A DNA stretch of 46,810 nt from a virus, in the IMG/VR virus record IMGVR_UViG_3300002460_000008. The stretch is one strand, 5' to 3'. The notes beneath the pieces are model-generated. The model had not been told where the DNA came from. It did not search any database and saw only the letters and a program-made list of their open reading frames with translations. The first letter of the stretch is position 1; every line of letters begins with the position of its first letter. The position numbers and the translations under genes are program-made. Shown here one piece after another: positions 1 to 44,709 of this stretch.

Positions 1-33
1 GGACGTGGCGGGAGCGTCAGCCCGCCACAAATT
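1..33. repeat. Terminal direct repeat; identical to 46778-46810 (circular-closure overlap or short terminal redundancy)
   Basis: Read directly: GGACGTGGCGGGAGCGTCAGCCCGCCACAAATT at both window ends. The recombination module (Sak4-like at the right end, DUF669-like at the left end) is contiguous across the junction. Confidence 0.9.
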
Positions 34-134
34 ACAAAAAGAGGAGATTTATAGAATATTGGGGTAGGTTAGACAAATGGAATGCTGAAAAGGACGGTTT
101 CATTCTTGAATTACGGGCTCGAATTGCTCTAGTA

Positions 135-335
135 ATGCTAGAGCATTGGGGACCTGTAATGGGAAAAGTTAGTTCAAATGAAGATTCCAGTGGTAGACGG
201 TATATCGAAGATATGCAACCTCAAGATTTAGTGAGAAAAGCATTTGAAATTGCTAAGTTTTATGTAGAAAGGGCCGAGCAAGATAATCTCATAAAGAAAT
301 ACGACTCAGATAAGGGGAATGAAAATGCGAATTAA
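135..335 (+). CDS. Hypothetical protein (66 aa)
   Basis: ORF track. The ATG lies in the loop of a GCTCTAG/CTAGAGC hairpin (126-144) with no obvious SD, so the start is uncertain. Confidence 0.4.
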   Translation: MLEHWGPVMGKVSSNEDSSGRRYIEDMQPQDLVRKAFEIAKFYVERAEQDNLIKKYDSDKGNENAN

Positions 336-741
336 TTTCTCAAGCACGTCACAGGAGTTTGAACCACTTCCGAATGGGACGAATCTTTCGGAAGTGGAGT
401 CGATGGAAGTGGGTAAGTCAAGCACGGGAAATCCGAAGATTAAGACGACGTTTAAGATTCTTGATGTGGATGGAGGGAGGAAATTGTGGGATGAGTTTAG
501 CTTACTCCCGCAATCAGGATGGAAGTTGAAGGATTTTCTCGAGAAGGCGCAAGTGCCGCATAGTGCGATGCCGCTTACTGAACGTGGCTCTTTCGAGATT
601 GATTTCAATACAGAAGATGCTATCGGTGCGAAGGTTGTCATCAGGCATGAACAGGAGAGCTATGACTCGAAGCAAACGGGGCAGGATGGGAAGGCGATTA
701 GGAAGATTAAGAACGAAGTGAAGGAGTATCTCAAGGCATAA
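319..741 (+). CDS. DUF669-like phage protein (putative ssDNA-binding partner of Sak4-type recombinases)
   Basis: N-terminal pattern FEPLPNG...KIKTTFKILDVDGGRKLWDEFSLLPQSGWKLKDFL resembles DUF669. It lies next to an AAA_24/Sak4-like gene across the circular junction. Confidence 0.55.
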   Translation: MKMRINFSSTSQEFEPLPNGTNLSEVESMEVGKSSTGNPKIKTTFKILDVDGGRKLWDEFSLLPQSGWKLKDFLEKAQVPHSAMPLTERGSFEIDFNTEDAIGAKVVIRHEQESYDSKQTGQDGKAIRKIKNEVKEYLKA

Positions 742-851
742 AGACTAACGCTGTAAGGCGAGTGGGGCGCGCATACTTTATAACGCGCTAATATTTAGGA
801 GAGGAATTTTATGACGCCTAAGCCGCCGAAGCCGGGAACGGTGACTGGACG

Positions 852-968
852 ATGACCCGCCGCGACCTCGCGGACGTCCTGCTCGGCCTGCTGATCGCCG
901 CGCTGGCGATCACTGGCGCGCGGTCGGTCATGGAGGCGGTGGCGAAGATTCGGGGCGTGCCGTGGTGA
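852..968 (+). CDS. Small membrane protein (38 aa), first gene of the GC-rich cassette
   Basis: Hand translation: MTRRDLADVLLGLLIAALAITGARSVMEAVAKIRGVPW. One hydrophobic helix and high GC3. Preceded by a 14-codon ORF (811-855) with an ATGA overlap and a GGAGAGG SD. Confidence 0.4.
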   Translation: MTRRDLADVLLGLLIAALAITGARSVMEAVAKIRGVPW

Positions 969-1112
969 TGAGAGTCCCAGGGCGAGACGGGGAGGCGCGC
1001 TTGGCAGGACCATGGCCACCCCGGTGCGCGGAGTGCGGACAATTACTTCCGTGGTCGTTGCGTTCGGAGCCGCCCCGTGCCTGAGCCCTACCGCGTCGGC
1101 CCCCTCACGCCG

Positions 1113-1256
1113 ATGCCGCTGTGGGAGGCGCTGGTGATCCTGGCCGCCTACGCACTCGCACTGTGGCCGCTGGTGCTCGCGGCGTGGGTCGTCGGGCGCG
1201 TCGGGCAGGCGCGGCGACGGTGGGTCGTGGAGATCAAGTATGGAGGGCCGCGATGA
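1113..1256 (+). CDS. Small membrane protein (47 aa)
   Basis: Hand translation: MPLWEALVILAAYALALWPLVLAAWVVGRVGQARRRWVVEIKYGGPR. Strong GC3 bias, and ATGA overlap with the next ORF. Confidence 0.45.
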   Translation: MPLWEALVILAAYALALWPLVLAAWVVGRVGQARRRWVVEIKYGGPR

Positions 1257-1450
1257 GTAAACAGATGCCGAAGCGTATTCTCGTCCGGGCGCGGAATAAC
1301 ACGTCTGAAATGGGTAAGTTCAGAACCCTCGTGGACATACAACACGGCTACCTCTGGATCGGAGGCGATCCTGGACCCTGTTTCGTGGCGATCACAGGCC
1401 GAAAGACGCTGCTCAAGATCGCGGCGATGATCCGGAGGTACGCGCGATGA
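1253..1450 (+). CDS. Hypothetical protein (65 aa)
   Basis: Internal ATG of ORF 1121..1450, with ATGA coupling to the upstream and downstream ORFs. GC-rich. Confidence 0.5.
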   Translation: MSKQMPKRILVRARNNTSEMGKFRTLVDIQHGYLWIGGDPGPCFVAITGRKTLLKIAAMIRRYAR

Positions 1451-1902
1451 TTGACCTGACGCCGGAGGGGCTGCGGGCGCGGGCGCGTGATTGGTGCGTT
1501 GCCAATCTCAACCCGTTTTCAGAGTGGACGATTGATGAGTTGGCTACCGCCTTCACCGCCCTCGTCGCCGAGGCGCGTCAGGAGAGCGCCGGTTTCGAGT
1601 GGTGTCTTGACGAAATCAAGAACACTCTTGCTGGCCTCGGTTGCTCGCACGGACATGAACACGCGAAAACGCCACCGATGATGTACCCGGAATGGATCGT
1701 TTGCGTCGTCGCTCATCGTGTCGCCGAGGCGCGGCGGGCGCAGCGGGAGGCGGATGCGCTCGCGGTGTGCTGGTTTTGTCGCACAGCACGGCCGTTTTTA
1801 GATGACGGGAACACGCGGCACGTCGGGCAGGACGCGCAGGGCGACTTGATCGACATTCATTGCGTTGCTGCCGCGATCCGCGCGCAGGAGGAGACGCCGT
1901 GA
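1447..1902 (+). CDS. Hypothetical protein (151 aa), GC-rich cassette
   Basis: ORF track. 4-nt start/stop overlaps on both sides. No motif recognised. Confidence 0.6.
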   Translation: MIDLTPEGLRARARDWCVANLNPFSEWTIDELATAFTALVAEARQESAGFEWCLDEIKNTLAGLGCSHGHEHAKTPPMMYPEWIVCVVAHRVAEARRAQREADALAVCWFCRTARPFLDDGNTRHVGQDAQGDLIDIHCVAAAIRAQEETP

Positions 1903-2411
1903 TAACGGGAGATTGGCCACATCCGAGCAATGTAGGTGGTATGGCTCCGCTGGACGACGCGGCGTTCGTGAAGGCGATGACGGACAAGTTTCCTCTGATC
2001 ATGTCTGAGCGCGACCGCCTCGTGGCGATGGCGCGGGAAGCGATACGATTAAGAAGTTGCTCCGTTGTGCTGAGCGTCCATTACTGCGTGACGCATCAGC
2101 AGCCGTATATGCGTTGTACTGCGGGGATCGGGCAGGCTTTCATCCAGCGCCTCGCCGACGTGGAAAAATTAGCTGATGAAAGATTATTGAATTTAGATAT
2201 CTGTGAGAGAAAACTCACCGACGCAGAGGCGCGCGTGCGGGAGTTGGGGAAGACCATAATGGAGTGTGAATGTGCTGGCAACGAGCGGATTCTTCACGCC
2301 GTAACGCATGAGGGGTGTCCCGACGACTGCGGCCACGACAAGATTTTGTTGGGCAAAGTCGTCGAGGCGTCGAACGCGCTACGTGCCGCCCTCGCGCGGA
2401 GGACGACGTGA
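1899..2411 (+). CDS. Hypothetical Cys/His-containing protein (about 170 aa)
   Basis: GTG at 1899 overlaps the upstream TGA (GTGA), in the frame of ORF 1860..2411. Contains an AT-rich patch at 2161-2216. Confidence 0.55.
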   Translation: MITGDWPHPSNVGGMAPLDDAAFVKAMTDKFPLIMSERDRLVAMAREAIRLRSCSVVLSVHYCVTHQQPYMRCTAGIGQAFIQRLADVEKLADERLLNLDICERKLTDAEARVRELGKTIMECECAGNERILHAVTHEGCPDDCGHDKILLGKVVEASNALRAALARRTT

Positions 2412-2590
2412 GCTATCTCTTGATGGACGAGCGGGCGATGGACCCGGATCAGTTTGGGGAAGCGATCGTGTACGCAGCGGCAGAGACTCTTGTAGAAGCG
2501 CGCCGCGATCAGACTGAGTCAGGATGCGGCGTCATCATTCGCGTCAGCCGCCACGATGACGAGTACAAATGGGAGGAATACATCCCGTGA
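2408..2590 (+). CDS. Hypothetical protein (60 aa)
   Basis: GTG at 2408 in a GTGA overlap, in the frame of ORF 2315..2590. Confidence 0.5.
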   Translation: MSYLLMDERAMDPDQFGEAIVYAAAETLVEARRDQTESGCGVIIRVSRHDDEYKWEEYIP

Positions 2591-2817
2591 TCGCCCCCGC
2601 GGACCCCGTGGAGGCGCTGGCGAAGGTGCTCAAGTCCGTGCGCGTGGACGGTATGCCGATTGTGATTACGTGGTCAGACGCTGAGGACTTGGCCCGCGCC
2701 GCCCTCGCCCACGCGCGGGCGCTGGTGCCGCCCGAGAGCATGAGCATAGAGGTTCGATATCGAGAAGCTTGGAATAACTGCCGCGCCGAGACGCTGCGGC
2801 GGCTGGGCGGGAAATAA
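2587..2817 (+). CDS. Hypothetical protein (76 aa), last gene of the GC-rich cassette
   Basis: GTG at 2587 in a GTGA overlap, in the frame of ORF 2569..2817. Confidence 0.5.
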   Translation: MIAPADPVEALAKVLKSVRVDGMPIVITWSDAEDLARAALAHARALVPPESMSIEVRYREAWNNCRAETLRRLGGK

Positions 2818-2826
2818 AAACAAATA

Positions 2827-3219
2827 ATGAAACTTACCTGGCGCGGTTGGGCAGCGCGTATCCATACCTACTTCGATCAAGGAAAAGATTTCCTTGAGCG
2901 ATTTCGTGGATTACTCATTGCCGGCGCTGCACTTAAAATTCTTGGTGTACCACTTTGGGCGTTGGCTTGGCTGACGCCTTTGGTAATTTTTCTTTACATT
3001 TTAGTTGGTTATGTTTGGGTCAAAAGAGGATGGTACAAAGAACTTTCTGAAATTTCGGCACTTGACCGATGGACACCATTGCAGGTTTGGAATATTTGGA
3101 TGCAAATTAAGATATTAAAAAGATTAAGAATCGAGATTAATAACTTCGACACGAAAAGACTTCCCGAAGAATACTTAAAAGTTTTAGCTTCAACAAAAGA
3201 AAGAACCAATGCTGATTAG
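2827..3219 (+). CDS. Membrane protein (130 aa, two predicted TM helices)
   Basis: Hydrophobic stretches LLIAGAALKILGVPLWALAWLTPLVIFLYILVGYVWV. AT-rich backbone composition resumes here. Confidence 0.6.
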   Translation: MKLTWRGWAARIHTYFDQGKDFLERFRGLLIAGAALKILGVPLWALAWLTPLVIFLYILVGYVWVKRGWYKELSEISALDRWTPLQVWNIWMQIKILKRLRIEINNFDTKRLPEEYLKVLASTKERTNAD

Positions 3220-3463
3220 AATGTGCAGTTGGCATATTAAATACAGAGGTAAAAAGAAATTTCTTGGGATTATTAAATGGCAGCCATTGTGGAAGTGGCA
3301 GGTAAGTCATGGGATTTGCGATTTGTGCTGGAATGAGTGGAGAAAAGAAATAAGGGGGAAATTTGGGGGAAAACGGTGATGGCATCTAAGCTAATAACTT
3401 TGTGTCCATCACACACTTCAACTCCACTAATCTTTTCTTGGAGGAAGGGATGAAGGGTGGAGC

Positions 3464-3844
3464 GTGAGTACCCCAATTGATTTTTTCACGTTTGGAGAGT
3501 CTTATATAATTGATGGATTATGTGATTTATTAAAAGACTTAAATTGTGAAATTGAGATAAAAACAGAATATATATGGGATTATCGAGCAATAAAGGTTTT
3601 CGTAGAATGCGATCACTTTCACATTGAATTTCTTATAAAAGATGAATTCTTTCATGGCGGAAAAGTCGGAAAAGTCGATTTAATATTAAAAATCGTAACA
3701 TACAATGCACTAAAATTCATCTCCGCTCACCGTTTTCTTTGCTTAGTTGGGACAGCAGAATTAATCTTTGAAAGTGAATCGAAAAAAATGGAAGAAACAT
3801 TTCCTGAATTGGTAAAGCTGGCAGAAATTATAAAGAATGCCTAA
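3464..3844 (+). CDS. Hypothetical protein (126 aa)
   Basis: ORF track (GTG start). Abuts the polymerase gene. Confidence 0.55.
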   Translation: MSTPIDFFTFGESYIIDGLCDLLKDLNCEIEIKTEYIWDYRAIKVFVECDHFHIEFLIKDEFFHGGKVGKVDLILKIVTYNALKFISAHRFLCLVGTAELIFESESKKMEETFPELVKLAEIIKNA

Positions 3845-6254
3845 CTACCAACAAAAACCCCCCTCTTGCAACGGCTGCCCGTGGGAGCACCTTAGCATCG
3901 GCTACGCCACCGGCAGCGGTCCTTCCAATGCTAAATTAGCTGTTATCGCAGAGAGCCTAGGGGAAAATGAAGCGATTCAAGGGATTCCCCTCGTTGGTTA
4001 CACTGGACAAGAAGTCAACAAATTTCTTTCTGACAACGGCGCATTACGGCAGGAGACTTATTGTGATAACGTAGTACGTTGCAAACCCCCCATTGGTAAA
4101 GGAAAGAAAATTCCTAAAGAGGTAATTAAGTTTTGCACCGAGCGCCACCTTAAACCCGCTTTACAACTGGTGAAACCTAATGCGATTATCGCCCTGGGCG
4201 AGTATAGTCTTAACTATCTCAGTGGTAAGCGTGGTATCAGTCGTAGGCGTGGTTCTATACTTAATACAACTTTTGGGAAGGTAATTCCCACGTTTCATCC
4301 GTCATGGCTTCACAAAGGCGAAAATGCAATAATAATGTGGCCTTTCGTCTCTTTCGATTTTGGGAAGGGAATAAAGGAGGCTAAAACAGCGGAGTATTCT
4401 CCGCCGGCCGAGAATTTCAACATTGCCCCAACTATTGATGATATACGAGAACTTAAAAAGGCGGCTCAAGATGAAGGTAAGGTTGCCGTCGACATCGAAA
4501 CCTCCGCAGGATCATGGTGGAACACCGCGCCATTGTGCATTGGATTCTATCTATCGAAATGTAACCGAGCTATATGCGTTCCCTTCTTTGGACAATATGG
4601 AGTGTCAATTTGGAAGGACGATGAGCTTTTAGAAATTATAGTTCTGATAGATTCAATCTTGGGCGATGAAAGTATCGAAAAGATTTTGCAAAATGGTAAC
4701 TATGATATAAAAGTCCTTGAAGATGTTGGGTTCAAAGTAAGAAATTTTGCTTTCGACACCATGATTGCTCATCACGCAATAATCGCCGAAAAGGGCGTTC
4801 CCCACACTCTTGATTTTATTTCCTCGATTTACACCGACACTCCCTATTACAAAGATGATGTTAAGGGGGAAGATAACTTTGCCTTACATCCTGAAACAAC
4901 TCTTAGGACTTATAATTGCCGTGATTGCCGGGTTACTGGCCTTTCAGCTAGCGAGCTTGATCTTGAATTAGATGAATATGGAGTGAGAGAGACGTTCAAT
5001 CAAGATATGGCGATGCTTTTACCCATGAGAAGGATGGAAAAGCGGGGTATCTTAATTGAAACGACCCTTCTCGCAAAGTATAGGGCAGAGACTCTTCAAG
5101 AAATTGAAGAAGCAAAGAGTGACATAAAAAGAATTTTAGGCGGTGAGTTTAACCCGGGTTCAGGTAAACAGATGCGGAAATTTCTCTTCGAGGATTTGAA
5201 GCTGGAACCTGTTTCTTATACTAAAAGCAAGATTCCAGCTGTAGATTTTGATTCACTGATGCAATTGATGGATCAGGTTAGTGGGAATTTGGAGATTCTA
5301 TTAGCTCTGTTCCTCAGACTACGTAAAGTTGAAAAGCAACATTCAACTTATTTTAAGGAATTTATTCTTGATTACAATAACCGAATTCACACGAATCTTC
5401 TTCTCCACGTTACCCCAACCGGCCGATTATCTTCTCGGAATCCAAATTTACAAAACCAACCAGATGGCCGAGCAAAGCAACTTTTTATTAGCCAATTTGG
5501 ATTCGAGTTTCTTTCAAGAGATTATTCTCAAATTGAGTTACGAATTCTCGCGTATCTCACTAATGATGAAAGTCTCATAGAAATCTTTGAATCTGGCAAA
5601 GACCCGCACCTTCAAAATGCGAGTGATTTGTTTGGCATTCCGATTAACAAAGTGACAGAACAACAACGCGATGCCTCAAAAATCTTCGTTTACGGCGGTG
5701 TCATCTACGGCGGCACAGCCGGAACGATCCGTGCTCAAATGCGTAGTCGCGCTTTAAAAGAAATTTGGGAGAAGAAACTTCCTATAAGCCAGATAAAGAA
5801 AATGGCAATTCCTTCAACTGAGGAGGTAAAACGGGTTCAGGGGAATTGGCTTGAAAAGCACCCTAATATTGGGAAGTTTCAACGAGAAATCGAAGTGGAG
5901 GTGCTGAAAAATAGGAAACTTACTATTCCGATTGGTGGACGGGTGAGGTACTTTCTTGGAAAGAAGGAAAATATTGTTAGATCGGGATACAACACGCCGA
6001 TCCAGGGATCAGCCGCCGGCGTTATTAATCCCGCTTTAGTTACTCTTGACAGTCTTGTTCCCGATCCTAATGGTATTTCTTTGCAGGTACATGATGAATT
6101 GCTCCTAGAGGTGAGAGAAAGTGAGATTGATAAATATGTTGAGTTGAGTAAAAATGTTATGGAAAAGCCGATTAAACTCAATGGTAGGGAAATAGTATTT
6201 CCAACTTCATGTAAAGTTGGTTACTCCTGGGAGGGATTAAAGAAATATGTCTGA
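3837..6254 (+). CDS. Family A DNA polymerase with 3'-5' exonuclease and an N-terminal family-4-type uracil-DNA-glycosylase-like Fe-S domain
   Basis: UDG-like region: CNGC...AESLGENEAIQGIPLVGYTGQ...VVRCKPP...FCTERH...FHPS. Exonuclease motifs: VAVDIETS, NGNYDIKVL, YNCRD. Polymerase motifs: A DYSQIELRILA, B RDASKIFVYGGVIYG, C QVHDELLLE. Confidence 0.9.
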   Translation: MPNYQQKPPSCNGCPWEHLSIGYATGSGPSNAKLAVIAESLGENEAIQGIPLVGYTGQEVNKFLSDNGALRQETYCDNVVRCKPPIGKGKKIPKEVIKFCTERHLKPALQLVKPNAIIALGEYSLNYLSGKRGISRRRGSILNTTFGKVIPTFHPSWLHKGENAIIMWPFVSFDFGKGIKEAKTAEYSPPAENFNIAPTIDDIRELKKAAQDEGKVAVDIETSAGSWWNTAPLCIGFYLSKCNRAICVPFFGQYGVSIWKDDELLEIIVLIDSILGDESIEKILQNGNYDIKVLEDVGFKVRNFAFDTMIAHHAIIAEKGVPHTLDFISSIYTDTPYYKDDVKGEDNFALHPETTLRTYNCRDCRVTGLSASELDLELDEYGVRETFNQDMAMLLPMRRMEKRGILIETTLLAKYRAETLQEIEEAKSDIKRILGGEFNPGSGKQMRKFLFEDLKLEPVSYTKSKIPAVDFDSLMQLMDQVSGNLEILLALFLRLRKVEKQHSTYFKEFILDYNNRIHTNLLLHVTPTGRLSSRNPNLQNQPDGRAKQLFISQFGFEFLSRDYSQIELRILAYLTNDESLIEIFESGKDPHLQNASDLFGIPINKVTEQQRDASKIFVYGGVIYGGTAGTIRAQMRSRALKEIWEKKLPISQIKKMAIPSTEEVKRVQGNWLEKHPNIGKFQREIEVEVLKNRKLTIPIGGRVRYFLGKKENIVRSGYNTPIQGSAAGVINPALVTLDSLVPDPNGISLQVHDELLLEVRESEIDKYVELSKNVMEKPIKLNGREIVFPTSCKVGYSWEGLKKYV

Positions 6255-6582: not shown

Positions 6583-8091
6583 ATGCCCGATCTCCTTGTC
6601 CCTCTCTTCCGGAAACTCGGGCAAATACGTTGGGATGAAAGTGAAGTAGTTGAGCAGTTAAAAGTAATTCAGTTTTTTATCAAAGAGCGCGATAAACTCA
6701 GTCTTATAGACTGTGGCCGCGCCGAAACAGAATTCCAACGTAGGCTTAGAATGTCTCGTGATGAGTGGTATCGCCTACTTATCAGTCGAGACACAGAGAA
6801 ACTTCGTTTACTCAAAGAGCATTGGGAGAAACTGAAACTTCAAAGTCAAAAACCCGGAGCTTATAAGGAGAAACAACAGCCGGCAGAAAAATCAATTTAC
6901 CCGCAAGGAGGTTGGCTTGGTGAATTTGTATTTGGATATGGTCGAATTATGGAATCGCCTGATTCTTTTCTATTCTGGTCTGGAGTCGCAGCTTTATCGG
7001 CTGTTATACGACGACACGTTTACGTTAATTTTGGGCCGAAAAATCTTTATCCTAATATGTATGTTATCCTCGTTGCTCCTGCTGGCATGGCCCGAAAAGG
7101 AGCGCCGATTAAAGCGGCGGAAGAGTTTGTAAAGATTATTCCAGATGTTAACTTCATTGATAGGACAACGACGGAGAGGCTCCCGCATGATCTTTCCTAT
7201 CGCGTTCAGGTTGTGGGTGGGCAGACAACGAAAGTCCCTTGTGACGCGCAAGCCTTTTTATGTGCTGAGGAATTAGTAGCAATTCTTGACGACCAAAGTT
7301 ACAACGCGGGAGTGATGAAGTTTCTTATCGACTGGTGGGATTGCCCTGATAGGAGAGCAACTCGCTCAATTTCTCATAATGTTATTGAGCTTCTTAATCT
7401 CCACTTAACACTTCTTGGTGGGACAACGCCGGGATGGCTTCAAGGGGCTCTCTCTTCCCTCATTGCCGGCGGTGGGATGTTATCTCGGGCAATTTGGGTA
7501 GTTGAGAATAGAACGAAGAAAAGATTGTCGTGGCCTGGATTACCGGATGAGAACATAGCCCGAAGTTTACGGGAGCAAATTGTGTACATCGAAGCTGTAA
7601 AGGGCGAATTTTCGATAGATAAGAGTAGCTTTGATTGGAATGATGATTGGTATAACAAGTTTAGGGATCACCTTGAAGCAAATGAGTCCGACGCACCAGC
7701 ACTTGAACGGAGGCAGATTCATCAGATAAAACTAGCAATGATTCTTGCCCTTAGCGAAGGAAAAGATTTAGTTATAACTCCCGAGCTACTCCAGGTAAGT
7801 AGCGATATTCTTGATAAGCAAGAGGAAGGAGCGCCAGAATTAGCTAGGATTCTCACGGCTAATCCGAAGGGTCGGGAAAGTTTAATGATTCTTGGTCATA
7901 TGCAACATAATGGGGGATTCATCTATCATTCTGATCTACTTAGGAGATTAAGTCCTTATGGAATTAATAAAGACGAATTGAAACAAATGATAGACACTCT
8001 CGAAGAAAGTGGGGAAATTGAAGTGGACATGGATACAACAAAGGGTCGGCCGGCAAAAATATATCGGTTGAAGAAAGGAAAGAAACCATGA
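6583..8091 (+). CDS. DUF3987-like replication protein (degenerate P-loop, C-terminal winged-helix-like tail)
   Basis: NLYPNMYVILVAPAGMARKG, AEELVAILDD, LTLLGGTTP and GGGMLSRAIWV follow the DUF3987 block order. Positioned after PolA/MazG. Confidence 0.5.
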   Translation: MPDLLVPLFRKLGQIRWDESEVVEQLKVIQFFIKERDKLSLIDCGRAETEFQRRLRMSRDEWYRLLISRDTEKLRLLKEHWEKLKLQSQKPGAYKEKQQPAEKSIYPQGGWLGEFVFGYGRIMESPDSFLFWSGVAALSAVIRRHVYVNFGPKNLYPNMYVILVAPAGMARKGAPIKAAEEFVKIIPDVNFIDRTTTERLPHDLSYRVQVVGGQTTKVPCDAQAFLCAEELVAILDDQSYNAGVMKFLIDWWDCPDRRATRSISHNVIELLNLHLTLLGGTTPGWLQGALSSLIAGGGMLSRAIWVVENRTKKRLSWPGLPDENIARSLREQIVYIEAVKGEFSIDKSSFDWNDDWYNKFRDHLEANESDAPALERRQIHQIKLAMILALSEGKDLVITPELLQVSSDILDKQEEGAPELARILTANPKGRESLMILGHMQHNGGFIYHSDLLRRLSPYGINKDELKQMIDTLEESGEIEVDMDTTKGRPAKIYRLKKGKKP

Positions 8092-8375
8092 TCCGCCCCG
8101 TTGGTCATAATGTTTTAATCAAAACTTTCAAAGACGAGGTGAAATACAAGAATATTCTTTTCGTCCCTGACACTGCAATGAAAAGATCATGTGAGGGTGT
8201 TGTGTTAAAGGTGGGGGAACGGTGCTTTCAAGTTAACCAAGGAGATTGGGTTATCTTCAGCCGAAAACAAGCCCATGATGTTGATGAGTATTTTGTTGGG
8301 GGACAACACGTTATCGTAGATGAACGTGGAGTGATGGTTGTTATAGAAGAAGAGGTGAAAGATATTGCTTACTGA
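8088..8375 (+). CDS. GroES-like co-chaperonin (Cpn10)
   Basis: IRPVGHNVLIK, ILFVPDTAMKRSCEGVVLKVGE, QGDWVIFSR and HVIVDERGVMVVIE align block for block with GroES. Confidence 0.75.
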   Translation: MIRPVGHNVLIKTFKDEVKYKNILFVPDTAMKRSCEGVVLKVGERCFQVNQGDWVIFSRKQAHDVDEYFVGGQHVIVDERGVMVVIEEEVKDIAY

Positions 8376-8568
8376 ACTCTATTCAACACTTCATAAATGC
8401 TCTTCATGCGGATTTATAGCAGAGGAAGAAGCAACTATTTATTCGGTTCGTTATCACCCTCCATGCTTAACTCCAATGGTAGTTATAAGGATAAGCAAAT
8501 TAGGACTAAATAATAAGCCAGAAAAAATAATTTACGATGCCCCCTTCACCGCGAGGAATGGAAAATAA
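8365..8568 (+). CDS. Hypothetical protein with a CxxC motif (67 aa)
   Basis: ORF track; CSSCGF motif. Confidence 0.45.
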   Translation: MLTELYSTLHKCSSCGFIAEEEATIYSVRYHPPCLTPMVVIRISKLGLNNKPEKIIYDAPFTARNGK

Positions 8569-8816
8569 TGTTTGTTGATATGTTTTCAGCAGATGACTAT
8601 TCAGAAGAAATTCAACTCAAAGTTCTTGTCAACCTCACTCTCCTCGATCTCGTGCGTGAGCTAAAACAAGGTGAAATCTTGACTACAGAATGGCTAGAGG
8701 ATAAATCCCATGATGCGGAATTTAGGATAATCGTCCAGGGCCGACGTGTAGGTGTAGGGGAAGGAAACAAGATAATCGACCCGCAAGATGGAAAACCGCT
8801 AATTATCTCGGGGTGA
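8568..8816 (+). CDS. Hypothetical protein (82 aa)
   Basis: ORF track; ATGA-type junction with the upstream ORF. Confidence 0.5.
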   Translation: MFVDMFSADDYSEEIQLKVLVNLTLLDLVRELKQGEILTTEWLEDKSHDAEFRIIVQGRRVGVGEGNKIIDPQDGKPLIISG

Positions 8817-8818
8817 TT

Positions 8819-8959
8819 ATGGTAAGCGTGACTCCGCCGGAAACGGTTTGTGATAGCTGTGGATTAGTAATAAAAACCGAAAAGATTTGCATAAGATGTT
8901 GGAGATGCGTTAACTGTCATGTTGGTGAACATGGAAAGGACTTGAAATGCGGAAATTGA
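8819..8959 (+). CDS. Cys-rich mini-protein (46 aa)
   Basis: Hand translation: MVSVTPPETVCDSCGLVIKTEKICIRCWRCVNCHVGEHGKDLKCGN. Eight Cys. Confidence 0.4.
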   Translation: MVSVTPPETVCDSCGLVIKTEKICIRCWRCVNCHVGEHGKDLKCGN

Positions 8960-9099
8960 ATTTGAGTAACTCAGCTAAGAAGGAATTGCTAAAATTCTTG
9001 GTGGAATTTTACATAAAGGGACGAGTTATCATAGGGCCGTTATATAATATGGGCTGGAATAGCGCGATAGATGCTTTAGTGAAGGAATTAAAAAAATAA
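8947..9099 (+). CDS. Hypothetical protein (50 aa), last rightward gene
   Basis: Hand translation: MRKLNLSNSAKKELLKFLVEFYIKGRVIIGPLYNMGWNSAIDALVKELKK. Confidence 0.4.
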   Translation: MRKLNLSNSAKKELLKFLVEFYIKGRVIIGPLYNMGWNSAIDALVKELKK

Positions 9100-9101
9100 T
9101 A

Positions 9102-9140
9102 ATCACCTCCTTCCCTAATCAGGTTCGATCACCTCCTTTT
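9102..9140 (+). other. Two copies of a 16S rRNA 3'-tail (anti-Shine-Dalgarno) look-alike in the convergent intergenic gap
   Basis: ATCACCTCCTT (9102-9112) and GGTTCGATCACCTCCTTTT (9122-9140). On the minus strand these read as two long SD sequences (AAGGAGGTGAT) with no ORF behind them. Confidence 0.6.
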
Positions 9141-9213
9141 AGTAAGACTTTTTCTTTGGAGGCTTTGTAGCTTGGCCCTTCTTTGTTTTCATCTGATTGC
9201 CTGGCATTGTTTA

Positions 9214-10671
9214 TCACCCCCCTTCCATTTGGCCTATTAAAGTCATTGCTTTTTGCCATAATTTTAAATTATCCGGGTTATGAATAATTTTTGTAGAAAG
9301 CCCAAGAGATTCTAGAAGTGCATCCTTTTCAGAGTTACTCAATCCAACATACTTTGTGTATCCTTTATTATAGCTTTTATAATCATATTCCGGTAATTTA
9401 GCTTTAGAAATTTCATCCTTCATTATTCCGGCACTTTTCCACTTATTAAATTTGTGCTCCCAAATAGACAATTCTACAGGTTTCATAGTTTTTATGACGT
9501 TATCAGAAAATCCGAGATGAGTATTTAGCCATTCTTTAAAACTAAAAGTGTCGGTAAATTCTTTACTCAGTCCAAAAGGAACTGATGGTTGATAATTTTC
9601 CATTTCGGGTAATACCAATCCTCCCTCTTTTCCCCCAAGAGGGATTTTCTTATAAGTTTCGTTAAGAGAGAGTGGCTGACTCCCCATAGCTTCCTCAAAT
9701 TTCCTACCCAAATCAGCTTTAGACCTACTATACCGCGAACCAATTCTAGGGCCGCCACCTTCTGATCTTACACTCATTAATTCCAATGGAATAGCCTTCT
9801 TCGTATCAAGAACTCTTAACTCACCTTCGAAATACCTTTTCGGGTTATAAAGTAAGCCCTCAATTTCTCTACTCCTTAAAGCCTCTGAAAGAGCGGTGTT
9901 GAATTCTTTTGTATTGCTCGCCCCGACCAATTTTGGAAATGAAGCGAAGAAACTTTGTTGGCCAGTTGGAATGTACCTTCGCATCTTATTCATTTCAAAT
10001 AACTTTGGAACAACTTCCATAAAGGGGAGATTATGCAACTTCGCAAAATCTTCCATTTTTAGAGCAGTATTAAATAACTCGTCACCTGAAGGAGTTTTAA
10101 CAGAAGTCTTGTTTAAAGCATCAATATAAGACTCAACAAGTTTCTTTTGAACCTGTTCACCCCACGCCGGCTGAATTTGGCTCGGTTTCATCGTTGGTGC
10201 TACACGAAGGACATCTGCACCAAAAGAGTATGCTTTAGTTGGAGTGGTAGTTAAACTAACTCCAGATGGTTCACCGAATCGAAGACTAAATCTTTCCCCA
10301 ACCCGTGACGGATCAAAACCTTTTCTGAGAATTTGGGAACCAGTACCGACATCAGTCCCGTGAAACCACCCTCCCCGAATAATCTTTTCAACCATCTTAG
10401 CAAAGTCACTTGGTAATTCACTAAGCTCAACTGGTTGCTTAACCTGCCTTTTTATAAAATCACGATATGCACTCTGAACAGCTTTACTCGCCCCCGGCAT
10501 TGCCGTTTCAGTAATATCGGGAGATGAAGGACCTAACGCGCCGAGGACGCTATGAATTAATTCGCTAATGTAATCTAATGGAGGAAATCCTTTAGGTTCG
10601 TAGACGGATTTGCCCTGCGGACCTGCACTTATCTGCGCCTCATTAGGATCGAATGGATTAGCTATGGGCAT
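9214..10671 (-). CDS. Last gene of the late operon; virion/ejected-protein candidate with a weak ADP-ribosyltransferase-like pattern
   Basis: Position after the giant internal protein. GGWFHGT...GVSLTTT...YFEGELRV loosely resembles ART H/R - S-x-T - ExE spacing, but the STS-to-ExE distance is unusually long. Confidence 0.5.
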   Translation of the reverse strand: MPIANPFDPNEAQISAGPQGKSVYEPKGFPPLDYISELIHSVLGALGPSSPDITETAMPGASKAVQSAYRDFIKRQVKQPVELSELPSDFAKMVEKIIRGGWFHGTDVGTGSQILRKGFDPSRVGERFSLRFGEPSGVSLTTTPTKAYSFGADVLRVAPTMKPSQIQPAWGEQVQKKLVESYIDALNKTSVKTPSGDELFNTALKMEDFAKLHNLPFMEVVPKLFEMNKMRRYIPTGQQSFFASFPKLVGASNTKEFNTALSEALRSREIEGLLYNPKRYFEGELRVLDTKKAIPLELMSVRSEGGGPRIGSRYSRSKADLGRKFEEAMGSQPLSLNETYKKIPLGGKEGGLVLPEMENYQPSVPFGLSKEFTDTFSFKEWLNTHLGFSDNVIKTMKPVELSIWEHKFNKWKSAGIMKDEISKAKLPEYDYKSYNKGYTKYVGLSNSEKDALLESLGLSTKIIHNPDNLKLWQKAMTLIGQMEGG

Positions 10672-36843: not shown

Positions 36844-36865
36844 TTTGGCACGGGGGGAGCCCCCC

Positions 36866-36891
36866 TGTGACAGAAATTGGCATTGTGACAG
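36866..36891. repeat. Direct repeat TGTGACAG x2 (36866-36873 and 36884-36891)
   Basis: Read directly. The second copy forms GTGAC-N7-GTCAC with the downstream sequence. Confidence 0.5.
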
Positions 36892-36902
36892 CGATGGTCA
36901 CT

Positions 36903-36912
36903 TGTCTAGACA
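36903..36912. promoter_or_regulatory. Palindrome TGTCTAGACA (operator candidate)
   Basis: Perfect 10-bp palindrome upstream of the leftward operon. Shares the GTCTAGAC core with three other sites. Confidence 0.5.
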
Positions 36913-36981
36913 TTAAGACAAACTACAGGTGGTGGCCGGCGGCGTGGTGAGCACTAGCTGTAGTAGCATGGCAATTGTCCT

Positions 36982-36995
36982 ATTGTCTAGACAAT
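36982..36995. promoter_or_regulatory. Palindrome ATTGTCTAGACAAT (operator candidate)
   Basis: Perfect 14-bp palindrome. Confidence 0.5.
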
Positions 36996-37004
36996 CGTGC
37001 AATT

Positions 37005-37037
37005 AAAAGAAAACCCCAGGCCGGCGGGCGCCTGGGG
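37005..37037 (-). terminator. Rho-independent terminator after gene 37046..37231
   Basis: CCCCAGGC (37014-37021) pairs with GCCTGGGG (37030-37037). It is followed on the minus strand by TTTTCTTTT. Confidence 0.65.
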
Positions 37038-37045
37038 TTCCCTTA

Positions 37046-37231
37046 CTACTTCGTCGTCGTGTCGAGATCGGCGCCTAGCGCATCCAGCGCCATGTCGCCG
37101 AGAGTGTGCAGGTAGCTATCGTCGTTTTCGTCCTTCGCCCGGAGCGCCATGATTTCCTTGTTTTCCACCTGGCGCACGTCACCGAAAAATTCCTTGATCG
37201 CTCCCACTCGCGTGAGCTTCCGCTTTTCCAT
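37046..37231 (-). CDS. Hypothetical acidic protein (61 aa), GC-rich
   Basis: ORF track; GGAGGGAAC SD; followed by a terminator. Confidence 0.55.
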   Translation of the reverse strand: MEKRKLTRVGAIKEFFGDVRQVENKEIMALRAKDENDDSYLHTLGDMALDALGADLDTTTK

Positions 37232-37305
37232 GTTCCCTCCACCATTGCGGAGATTTGACTACCCCATCAGCATTGCACTAACGGGGTAGTTTGTCAAGCT
37301 TGCGT

Positions 37306-37767
37306 TTACTTGCCGAACGCCGAGAGAAGCTGGTCGATCTCCGCGTCGCTCTTTCCCTGCGCTTTCAGCACAGCGCGAAGAGTGAACGACGCGCGTTCCA
37401 CGGCCTTGTCAGTGACGGGCCGGTGTTCCGCTACGCTCGCGTTCGCAGCGTTCTGCATCGCCGATGCGACGATCAAATCCCACACCGCGTCATCGGGCGT
37501 TGCGTAGTCGTTGTCCTTGACGAACTGCGCCAGCGCCTCTTTCGCTGACTGGCCGTAGCGATTGTGTAGGTCGGCGATAGTGATCGGTTTCACCGTGGCA
37601 GGATCGATGCCAAGAAGCTTCGCTTGCTCGACACGGATAGAACCGTCGTCGTTTGTCAGGGAGTTGGAGTAAACTCCCTTGTTTTCCTTCGGGTCCCAAC
37701 CGACACAGCGATTGCGCTTCGCCTTTTTTGGATCGAACGTGAACTTCTTTTTCTCCGCCGTCGCCAT
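37306..37767 (-). CDS. Hypothetical protein (153 aa), Lys-rich N-terminus, GC-rich
   Basis: ORF track; GGGAGGAACGAAA SD. An intercistronic 8-bp stem-loop lies at 37258-37290. Confidence 0.6.
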   Translation of the reverse strand: MATAEKKKFTFDPKKAKRNRCVGWDPKENKGVYSNSLTNDDGSIRVEQAKLLGIDPATVKPITIADLHNRYGQSAKEALAQFVKDNDYATPDDAVWDLIVASAMQNAANASVAEHRPVTDKAVERASFTLRAVLKAQGKSDAEIDQLLSAFGK

Positions 37768-39489: not shown

Positions 39490-40172
39490 TGCAAGTCTCC
39501 ACCGGCCCCACCGCCGACGTTCGCTCGAGCCTTTCCGGGCGCATCACCGACGCACGACGCGCTATCTTCATAGAGTTGCGGGAACGTGGTATGTCGGCTG
39601 TGGTTGCCAAGTCAGAAATTACCCTCACAAAATCTATTCCCGGCCGCCGTGGTCGCCATTCATGGCAGGTTAATGCTTTCATGGCGAATGGCGGCCGTAA
39701 TCCGATTTTCATACTCGCAGATATTTCAATCGGTGACTTCGTGGAAGTTTACTTTCCGCCGAAGGAACAACGCCTACACGTTAAACTAGCGGTGCTACAT
39801 AACATTCTCACACCTTATTCCCTCACCGACGCCTCCTCAATTAGCCCCACCGACGAAATTTTCTTCTCAACTCCGTCTCTAGCAGTTGTCACGTCAACTA
39901 AGGCGAGGCAAAATTTTGCTAAGGCGGTTTACGACGTGGCAAAGGAAAGCGATCAGCCGATACATAAGGTTTCAGCGTTGAAAGCGATGGAACAACTTTT
40001 CGTTTCGCTCGCGGCCGCCGGAAAAATCGAGAAGAGTTACGCTGAAAAACGATTCGATAAGTATGACAAAATAAGTGCGAGGATTTGGCGCGGTGGTACA
40101 CCGGGAGAGCAGATAAACTCTTTCATACTCGCATGGAATTTACTTGCGAGCGCCACGGGGATAACGAAATGA
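39489..40172 (+). CDS. Hypothetical protein (227 aa), start of the GC-rich island
   Basis: ORF track; TAATG junction. No motif recognised. Confidence 0.55.
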   Translation: MQVSTGPTADVRSSLSGRITDARRAIFIELRERGMSAVVAKSEITLTKSIPGRRGRHSWQVNAFMANGGRNPIFILADISIGDFVEVYFPPKEQRLHVKLAVLHNILTPYSLTDASSISPTDEIFFSTPSLAVVTSTKARQNFAKAVYDVAKESDQPIHKVSALKAMEQLFVSLAAAGKIEKSYAEKRFDKYDKISARIWRGGTPGEQINSFILAWNLLASATGITK

Positions 40173-40759
40173 ACGAATCGCTTGAACGCCAAGAAACTGC
40201 GATTGTCAAATCACGGCTTGACAGGATTCTCGAGAAGCGGGCTATTCAGCACAAGGTCATACTTGTGCTTGATACGTCTGGTAGCATGGCCTCACAGGCA
40301 GATTCTCCCGGCGAACGGCGCATCGACGCCTTACGTGGCGTCGTGACAATGCTTCGTAATCAAGGTATCGCTCCGCGCCAACTCGTTTTCAACAGCGACG
40401 TTATGTGGAGCGATGTCATCCCTGAGCCCTCCGGCGGCACGAATCTCGCGGGTGCGCTGAAATTCTGCAAACAGCTCAATCCTGAACACGTCATCGTGGT
40501 AAGCGACGGCGAGCCCGATGATATCTCGCAAGGCGGCGCTGCTAGCATCGCGGCAGCGAAAGCACTCAATTGCAAAGTTGACGTGTTTTTCGTGGGGCCA
40601 AAGGATATGACTCATGCAAAAGAATTCATGGACCGCCTTGCTGTGGGAACTGGAGGTTCTTCGCAGACGGTTTCCTTCAAAGAGCTTGAGCAGAAAATCG
40701 CGGGAATGCTCACTGCGGGCGATGCGGCGGATGAGAAAAAAGGGAGTATCGCGCTGTGA
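40169..40759 (+). CDS. von Willebrand factor A (vWA) domain protein with an intact MIDAS motif
   Basis: VILVLDTSGSM (DxSxS), GGTNLAGAL and VIVVSDGEPDD. Start set to the ATG at 40169 (ATGA overlap). Confidence 0.85.
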   Translation: MNESLERQETAIVKSRLDRILEKRAIQHKVILVLDTSGSMASQADSPGERRIDALRGVVTMLRNQGIAPRQLVFNSDVMWSDVIPEPSGGTNLAGALKFCKQLNPEHVIVVSDGEPDDISQGGAASIAAAKALNCKVDVFFVGPKDMTHAKEFMDRLAVGTGGSSQTVSFKELEQKIAGMLTAGDAADEKKGSIAL

Positions 40760-44625: not shown

Positions 44626-44709
44626 GGGAGCGTGATGGAATGGTAGACATGAAAGATTTAAAATCTTTTGGCGAAAGCCGTGGGGGTTCGACTCCCCCCG
44701 CTCCTACCA
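44626..44709 (+). tRNA. tRNA-Leu (anticodon UAA), class II with a long variable arm and encoded CCA
   Basis: Folded by hand. Acceptor GGGAGCG/CGCTCCT; D arm ATG-GAATGGTAGA-CAT; anticodon arm AAAGA-TTTAAAA-TCTTT. Variable arm GGC-GAAA-GCC; T arm GGGGG-TTCGACT-CCCCC; discriminator A followed by CCA. Confidence 0.9.

Follow-up and report, generated by a model that had tools for sequence, protein, structure and literature searches.

A GC-rich island in the replication operon of a groundwater phage and its modular gene families in unrelated phages

Genes and boundaries of the island

The DNA analyzed here, IMG/VR virus record IMGVR_UViG_3300002460_000008 (46,810 nucleotides (nt); the whole stretch is called the window), carries a GC-rich island of small genes at 811-2817, in the early replication/recombination operon of a phage. 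The island has a G+C content of 62.8% against 43.2% in the rest of the 46.8-kb window. This corresponds to z = 7.5 relative to all other segments of 2007 nt, the highest of which reached 50.5%. Measured by tetranucleotide distance, the island lay 0.71 from the remainder of the genome and other segments 0.24 +/- 0.04. In steps of 300 nt, the G+C fraction was 0.40-0.47 over 1-750, 0.65-0.72 over 751-1200, 0.56-0.66 up to 2850 and 0.32-0.40 thereafter; the rest of the window, in 1-kb bins, ranged from 0.375 to 0.548. A cumulative-GC walk placed the change-points at 814 and 2811, matching the start codon that opens the leader ORF (811) and the stop codon of g8 (2815-2817). An earlier note on this DNA, made from its letters, had claimed an abrupt change of composition. 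Both the sliding-window G+C and the tetranucleotide profile confirmed it, and the hand counts offered there, 43/60 G+C at 1441-1500 and 15/60 at 3481-3540, were reproduced exactly.

The genes and features of the island are listed in Table 1. In g1, g3, g4, g5, g6, g7 and g8, the G+C fraction at third codon positions (GC3, 0.67-0.92) was well above that at second positions (GC2, 0.39-0.53), and these seven frames are therefore genuinely coding. Candidate open reading frames (ORFs) in 962-1137 showed no such codon-position signal. Thus, of the seven to nine ORFs counted previously, seven are well supported and one or two are doubtful. Gene callers elsewhere extend g4 to 109 aa from a GTG at 1121, but the added stretch falls in the frame of g3. 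The two tiny proteins that had been described as single-pass membrane proteins can be recognized as g1 and g3, each of which has one long hydrophobic stretch when read directly from the sequence.

Table 1. Features of the island and its flanks, with positions in the window
Feature	Position	Strand	Description
DUF669-like/SSB-like backbone gene, left flank	319..741	+	46% G+C; weak Pfam DUF669 match (E 0.0076), PHROG SSB families; 43-52% identical in L037-L039
14-codon leader ORF MTPKPPKPGTVTGR	811..855	+	Behind strong AGGAGAGG Shine-Dalgarno sequence; G+C step starts here; stop overlaps g1 start (ATGA 852-855)
g1, 38 aa	852..968	+	One hydrophobic helix; GC3 0.92, GC2 0.51; cluster of 1; no family match
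g2, doubtful ORF, 40 aa	962..1084	+	GTG start; overlaps g1 stop and g3 start; flat codon-position G+C, 0.71/0.68/0.66
g3, 59 aa	1077..1256	+	One 26-residue hydrophobic helix; GC3 0.87, GC2 0.53; no relative outside this phage
g4, 65 aa	1253..1450	+	Soluble; no relative outside this phage
g5, 151 aa, modular family	1447..1902	+	Modules 1a-2a-3a; constant blocks A-D and three Cys/His-rich modules; 12 other homologue clusters
Block A, DLTPEGLRARA	1453..1485	+	Near-identical DNA in 13 lineages; same-codon identity 0.80 (0.38 expected)
Block B, FTALVAEAR	1552..1577	+	Same-codon identity 0.95 (0.39 expected)
Block C, VAEARRAQREAD	1720..1755	+	Identical 33-mer in 8/13 lineages, including the minor codon GAT; same-codon identity 0.90 (0.40 expected)
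Block D, g5/g6 junction, AAAIRAQEETP*	1867..1902	+	Carries AGGAGGAG and overlapping GTGA
g6, 170 aa, second modular family	1899..2411	+	Cys/His inserts (alignments)
Block E (g6), LTDAEARVREL	2214..2246	+	Conserved-block comparison
Block F, g6/g7 junction, ALARRTT*	2388..2411	+	Carries GGAGGA and overlapping GTGA
g7, 60 aa	2408..2590	+	No relative outside this phage
g8, 76 aa, third family	2587..2817	+	tblastn matches in L010-13, L014/15, L027-29 and L041; island ends at g8 stop
AT-rich membrane-protein gene (130 aa), right flank	2827..3219	+	40% G+C; missing from backbone relatives
AT-rich orphan gene (126 aa)	3464..3844	+	Same variable slot; overlaps PolA start (3837)

The genes are chained by 4-nt stop/start overlaps, ATGA at 852, 1253 and 1447 and GTGA at 1899, 2408 and 2587, and at five of the six a Shine-Dalgarno sequence of the GGAGG type lies 6-9 nt upstream. 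All six overlaps had been listed before, the first of them one nucleotide off (853; it occupies 852-855). The leader ORF at 811-855 is presumably translated as well. The same kind of overlapping junction was found in the high-GC phages that carry related genes (see below), in agreement with the view that this gene arrangement is typical of high-GC genomes.

A scan of the + strand of 742-2826 with a sigma-70-type consensus detected no promoter-like site, although such a scan may miss promoters of this phage. No terminator-like site was detected in 1-4200. A hairpin proposed at 765-790 proved to be a 6-bp stem (765-789) that is no more stable than shuffled sequences (z -0.12) and does not resemble a terminator. 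An Rfam scan of 500-3500 gave one sub-threshold chance match only and no sign of a structured RNA. The description of the island as a self-contained operon or system is therefore not supported: promoter-like and terminator-like sites were found neither inside it nor at its ends, and only g5, g6 and g8 recur together elsewhere.

The island is a regular part of this phage. All ten phage proteins that we tested were present in the public protein collection, on contigs of 45.8-46.9 kb from JGI, ENA and Logan assemblies. The membrane protein encoded at 2827 is listed in 50 blocks of that collection and was carried by all 23 contigs read (ENA, JGI, Logan). The island was present in each of six fetched contigs of the same phage (L001-L005 and L021), with 99.2-100% identity; judging from the record names, the contigs come from groundwater and aquifer metagenomes. 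The lowest value, 99.2%, belongs to a Rifle-type scaffold (L004) with a run of N in g6 and a deletion of 49 nt corresponding to 1494-1542 of the window. The other copies are 99.9-100% identical. The deletion (at 379/380 in L004) falls in variable module 1 of g5 and shifts its frame; it may be a true variant or an assembly error.

The insertion slot in related phages

No near-identical phage was found in INPHARED, where the best tblastn match of PolA was only 29% identical, and a search of IMG/VR gave no close relative. A protein search with PolA detected backbone relatives at 55-60% identity, and three of them (L037, L038 and L039) were fetched. They have in common with the window the AAA_24 gene (about 51% identical), the DUF669-like gene (43-52%), PolA, a 502-aa protein and Cpn10. 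In the window, the operon neighbors of the island are PDDEXK_1, AAA_24, DUF669 and UDG-PolA genes.

The interval between the DUF669-like gene and PolA is 3.1 kb in the window, where it holds the island and two AT-rich orphan genes. It is 557 nt with no called gene in L037, about 0.7 kb with two small genes in L039, and about 2.5 kb with other genes (DUF3310, HNH_3 and others) in L038. The island genes had no tblastn match in any of these three phages. Since the content of the interval differs in each relative and the island genes are missing from all, the slot is an accessory region of the hyperplastic kind, and the island is peculiar to the lineage of the window. The earlier note had placed a foreign insertion between the DUF669-like gene and the gene at 2827. 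The sharply deviant composition and the lack of the island genes in the three closest backbone relatives found bear this out; none of the three shares the block as ordinary conserved replication genes.

L038 has a patch of its own with 56-57% G+C in the same slot (about 8000-9500; surroundings about 46%), which includes the HNH_3 gene. Such a patch of deviant composition suggests that the slot takes up foreign DNA repeatedly. The gene for the membrane protein at 2827 and the ORF at 3464 likewise had no tblastn match in L037-L039 and no family match. These AT-rich genes (2827-3844) have the native composition and are equally accessory. An AT-rich direct repeat of 17 nt (697-713 and 3114-3130, 88% identical) was considered as an insertion scar and rejected: it would enclose the membrane-protein gene and misses the composition boundaries, so it is probably due to chance. 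In the DNA polymerase downstream of the slot (3837-6254), one chain of 805 aa joins a UDG-family domain with a 3'-5' exonuclease and PolA, and the same fusion was seen in all the relatives found.

A mobile gene set with shuffled modules

The island products had been called orphans. This holds for g1, g3, g4 and g7, which had no relative in any locus examined (g3 and g4 were also searched for in IMG/VR, with no result), and not for the three others. For g5, 12 homologue clusters were found beyond its own, 13 in all. For g6, a word-indexed search found one homologue cluster and an exhaustive HMMER scan of 1.84 billion representatives found ten. Homologues of g8 with 47-54% identity are present in four other phage loci, with a weaker one (39%) in L006; they lie downstream of g5/g6 homologues, and their alignment gives the family pattern PVEALAKxLK ... 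AEDLARxALAxA..LVP ... W..CRAE.LRRLG. The order g5-g6-g8 is kept in L010-13 and L041, while g5 and g6 occur together in L006, L018-20 and L035-36.

The carriers of this cassette are phages with backbones quite unlike that of the window: their AAA_24 and PolA proteins are about 25% identical to those of the window or give no match. Cassette-bearing L006-L013 are phage contigs with a uniform G+C content of 61-63%, and scans of IMG/VR and JGI data added contigs of 55-56%, 67% and 71%. Despite the unlike backbones, the nucleotide sequence of the cassette is 87-100% identical in places. For example, 1869-1971 of the window is 98% identical to L010-L013 over 103 nt. The G+C fraction of the cassette stays at 0.61-0.67 in backbones of 0.43-0.73. 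Its offset is +0.18 in the window, +0.09 in the 55% phages, neutral in those of 62-67%, and -0.07 to -0.09 in those of 71-73%. No relative of g5 was found in 185,579 bacterial and archaeal genomes of GTDB. The g5-g6-g8 core of the island is thus a copy of a rare set of genes, confined to phages, that passes from one unrelated phage to another.

The insertion context differs in every phage group, and the position relative to recombination genes varies. All the cassette phages have a PD-(D/E)XK nuclease gene and an AAA_24 gene nearby, whose products could supply short-homology recombination. GNAT acetyltransferase genes adjoin the cassette of g5 and g6 in three further phage lineages, and MazG-like genes lie a few small genes past it in two (coordinates of both kinds together: L010 4238-4723; L014 2273-3061 and 5269-5649; L040 753-1271; L041 1646-1963). 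The island of the window has neither.

Proteins of the g5 family consist of four constant blocks, A to D, around three variable slots filled with unrelated sequences, mostly Cys/His-rich modules. The combination of modules varies among phages. Written in the order of slots 1, 2 and 3, it is 1a-2a-3a in the window, 1a-2c-3b in L006, 1e-2b-3a in L041 and 1b-2a-x in L040. Slot 2 is empty in L020 (1b, none, 3c), L036 (1c, none, 3c) and L027 (1b, none, 3b). Each pair of slots displays all the combinations expected under recombination, and the swaps are always in frame. Module 2a also occurs alone, as a protein of 85 aa (P0041). In the window, a direct repeat of 14 nt, GTCGCCGAGGCGCG, flanks it on both sides: the repeat forms the last 14 nt of block B (from 1564) and recurs at 1720-1733.

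The constant blocks, which are 24-40 nt in length in the g5 family, are conserved as DNA. Blocks A to F have 24-36 nt and are 87-100% identical across up to 13 lineages. Over all the blocks, 87% of the codons agree between two lineages, compared with 39% predicted from the codon usage of the same genes (the expected values in Table 1 were obtained in the same way). Blocks D and F embed the signals for the following gene, a Shine-Dalgarno sequence and a start codon that overlaps the stop. It is strongly implied that the blocks are identical by descent and that they serve as short patches of homology.

On less evidence, g6 seems to follow the same plan of blocks and modules: LDDAAFV, EIDRLVALAR, RLADAEARVRELEE, a CxHGDExTCGCR module, and ALARRT[TP] before the stop codon. 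L014 (3386-4756; equal to L027) has a tandem array of three g6-like paralogues; the last residues are ALARRTP in two of them and WRTP in the third. The array is consistent with duplication by recombination between conserved junctions. We also considered g7 as a diverged paralogue of g5. Its resemblance to the VAEARRAQ segment of g5 is faint and non-significant (hhalign probability 34%), and the idea was dropped.

Origin and possible role of the island

We propose that 811-2817 was acquired horizontally from high-GC phages into a hypervariable accessory slot, that its g5-g6-g8 core belongs to a set of genes shuffled among phages, and that it has an early accessory role; we give this reading as a whole a probability of about 0.7. 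The foreign origin, the insertion and the mosaic architecture are shown by the comparisons above. The island would have entered the slot between the DUF669-like gene and UDG-PolA in the early replication/recombination operon of a groundwater phage with 43% G+C. Its genes would probably be translated as a chain from an upstream transcript, by way of the Shine-Dalgarno-led leader and the six overlapping junctions. With the constant blocks as homology patches, modules and whole genes could be swapped in frame by homologous recombination during co-infection, a mechanism that the block and module pattern strongly implies.

As for function, the products are predicted to be small cytoplasmic helical proteins together with two single-pass membrane peptides (g1 and g3). 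The variable modules, possibly zinc-binding, might give binding specificity for targets in the host or in rival phages, and the resulting role might be an early accessory, host-interaction or counter-defense one, in which functions of the host or of competitors would be modulated early in infection. We infer that the island probably has an early accessory or host-interaction role. Host takeover, anti-defense or exclusion had been suggested as candidate functions in the earlier note. The small size of the proteins, their dispensability, their mobility and their recombination-driven diversity fit a conflict-related role without proving it.

Several results weigh against this reading or some part of it. 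Searches of seven island proteins against Pfam, PHROG, PADLOC and NCBIfam reached no curated cut-off, including those of defense and anti-defense models. All the matches were at noise level; the earlier note had recognized no family motif either. A sequence search of PDB with a g5 profile and with g6 gave nothing below E 0.1. The AlphaFold2 (AF2) model of g5, mostly helices with a small hairpin, is of moderate confidence (predicted local distance difference test score (pLDDT) 66), and its fold search against PDB and BFVD gave nothing below E 0.8; the model of g6 (pLDDT 42) was unusable for a fold search. The possible binding of zinc by the Cys/His modules is read from the spacing of these residues alone. 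The promoter scan, confined to a sigma-70-type consensus, may have missed promoters. Selection on the mRNA, or on the ribosome-binding sites that the blocks contain, could explain part of the identity at synonymous sites in place of recombination. The direction of transfer is deduced from composition only, and composition and coupling are the only indications that g1, g3, g4 and g7 arrived jointly with g5-g6-g8. The G+C fraction is uneven along the island (0.72-0.73 in g1 and g3, 0.56-0.58 in g4, g6 and g7), a range of 0.56-0.73 that hints at more than one import, and the island may be composite. Given this unevenness, the whole 2 kb may not stem from a single event. Finally, the copies of this phage are nearly identical, so an analysis of selection within this phage lineage is impossible.

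Four other explanations were weighed. An assembly chimera, in which high-GC reads were joined into a low-GC phage contig, could account for the abrupt step in composition, and high-GC phages with related sequence do occur in the same sample series (ERZ27254756). The same junctions were found, however, in six of six contigs at 99.2-100% identity, four of them of 45.8-46.9 kb, which came from different assemblers and projects (ENA megahit-style k141, JGI, the Rifle scaffold and a groundwater SRR assembly), and both boundaries fall on a start and a stop codon; we regard the chance of a chimera as negligible. Another view is that the island belongs to the conserved, ordinary gene content of the replication/recombination module and is merely odd in composition. 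This would agree with its place in the replication operon, after the DUF669-like gene and before PolA, and with the PDDEXK and AAA_24 genes that adjoin the g5/g6 set in other phages too. We consider it very improbable, since three backbone relatives (PolA 55-60%, AAA_24 about 51% and DUF669 43-52% identical) lack every island gene, the proteins match no replication family and belong to very rare families, and the position relative to the recombination genes varies between phages.

The two remaining explanations accept that the DNA is foreign. Passenger DNA that came in by illegitimate or short-homology recombination, that does nothing for this phage and that is now either neutral or in decay, might be dispensable in relatives and not ameliorated in composition, as the island is. 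The frameshifting 49-nt deletion of g5 in L004 and the lack of a convincing gene in 968-1077 could be taken as decay. Nevertheless, seven frames are intact with their Shine-Dalgarno sequences and stop/start coupling preserved, and the block is intact in five of six fetched contigs, L004 being the exception. The frames of g5, g6 and g8 are open across many recombinant forms with in-frame swaps, which argues for selection on these proteins, at least in their usual hosts. We therefore find the passenger explanation unlikely, though it keeps some weight. Quite unlikely, too, is a self-mobilizing element, in which a dedicated recombinase, nuclease or homing enzyme would recognize the conserved blocks and copy the cassette from phage to phage. 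It would explain why the identity of the blocks is far above protein constraint, why the composition of the cassette is constant across backbones and why a 14-nt direct repeat surrounds module 2a, and HNH genes lie in the same slot or nearby in L037 and L038. Against it, none of the island ORFs has the domain of a recombinase, integrase, transposase or nuclease, other loci lack a consistent neighbor of this kind, the island ends have no terminal repeats beyond the 17-nt AT-rich pair that is probably due to chance, and the insertion contexts are unlike in every phage group.

Horizontal acquisition into an accessory slot, the reading we prefer, places the island close to several known systems. 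The concept of morons goes back to Juhala and Hendrix. Morons are stretches of deviant composition between genes that are otherwise near neighbors, and they are independent transcription units (Cumby et al. 2012, PMC3594210). The island resembles them in its deviant composition (62.8% against 43.2%), in its horizontal spread, in being non-essential for the backbone, and in lying between genes that are nearly adjacent in relatives (557 nt with no called genes in L037). It differs in having no promoter-like or terminator-like site and in being chained by translational coupling to the upstream operon. It also lies in the early replication operon of an apparently lytic-style genome, whereas morons lie in the late region of prophages, and it has seven to nine genes rather than one or two. 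We thus call the island moron-like and do not class it as a moron, because it does not show the features of an independent transcription unit.

In the hyperplastic regions of T4-like phages, intergenic sequences with an early promoter and a stem-loop terminator, known as promoter early stem-loops (PeSLs), are exchange points (Arbiol et al. 2010, PMC2839356; Comeau et al. 2014, PMC4122927). As in that shuffling, variable orphan genes of unrelated content lie in a plastic region between core genes (intervals of 0.56-3.1 kb), and short conserved nucleotide motifs common to otherwise unrelated sequences serve as the likely exchange points for homologous recombination. The motifs of the island, in contrast, are coding sequences or Shine-Dalgarno and stop/start junctions, the exchange is in frame and shuffles protein modules in addition to genes, and the phages that carry the cassette are unrelated, with 43-73% G+C.

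Lambdoid phages and mycobacteriophages reportedly have mosaic joints, for which linker or boundary sequences at gene borders are said to have been proposed as promoters of exchange. The sharp switches between highly similar and unrelated sequence are common to those joints and to the cassette. The joints of the cassette differ in lying also within genes, at fixed in-frame positions, which results in a combinatorial three-slot protein, and in the 30-point range of G+C among the backbones. Anti-CRISPR operons consist of small, diverse, horizontally exchanged proteins that match no known family and are encoded in an early-expressed, dispensable slot. The likeness of the island proteins, which are also small, diverse, mobile and without a family match, is circumstantial; no associated helix-turn-helix regulator was found at the island, and no known defense model matched. 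A diversity-generating retroelement does not fit either, as whole non-homologous modules are replaced instead of single bases, repeats in 600-3300 are at most 20 nt long with no template repeat among them and the island ORFs, to which the scan was confined, contain no reverse transcriptase domain. The island and flanking genes examined have no recombinase domain, and no attC-like imperfect inverted repeat was found at gene ends, unlike what an integron would have.

A foreign block in an accessory slot of a phage is ordinary in itself. Less ordinary are a cassette of constant composition across backbones of 43-73% G+C and the in-frame shuffling of three slots between linkers identical in nucleotide sequence. 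The cassette documents recent gene flow between phages that are up to 30 G+C points apart and have about 25% protein identity. This bears on the reach of the common phage gene pool across host boundaries within one aquifer community. Shuffling between conserved linkers is also an unusual route of diversification for small early proteins. If the Cys/His modules do set specificity, these families may represent a new class of host-interaction or counter-defense proteins. The constant blocks might provide a signature by which more members could be detected.

One could go further and regard the blocks as dedicated in-frame recombination linkers, two of which double as coupling junctions. The g5 and g6 genes would then form a combinatorial system at the population level, with Cys/His specificity modules pooled and reassorted across unrelated phage lineages and presumably across different hosts (43-73% G+C), in the service of an arms race against host defenses or competing phages. 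We put this forward tentatively and think that it may well be wrong.

Elsewhere in the window, there is a second and smaller GC-rich patch at 36850-37750 (55-61% G+C, compared with about 43%). Its ORFs on the minus strand at 37306-37767 and 37046-37231 encode 153 and 61 aa, with GC3 of 0.73-0.77 and no Pfam match, and the patch may be another import. A rise in G+C near 40 kb (40085-40759) was also considered as a second import. It corresponds to a VWA-like gene that is 52-56% identical in L037 and L038 and is hence a backbone gene. The window has one tRNA gene, for tRNA-Leu (44626-44709), with the anticodon TAA, which reads the AT-rich codon UUA.

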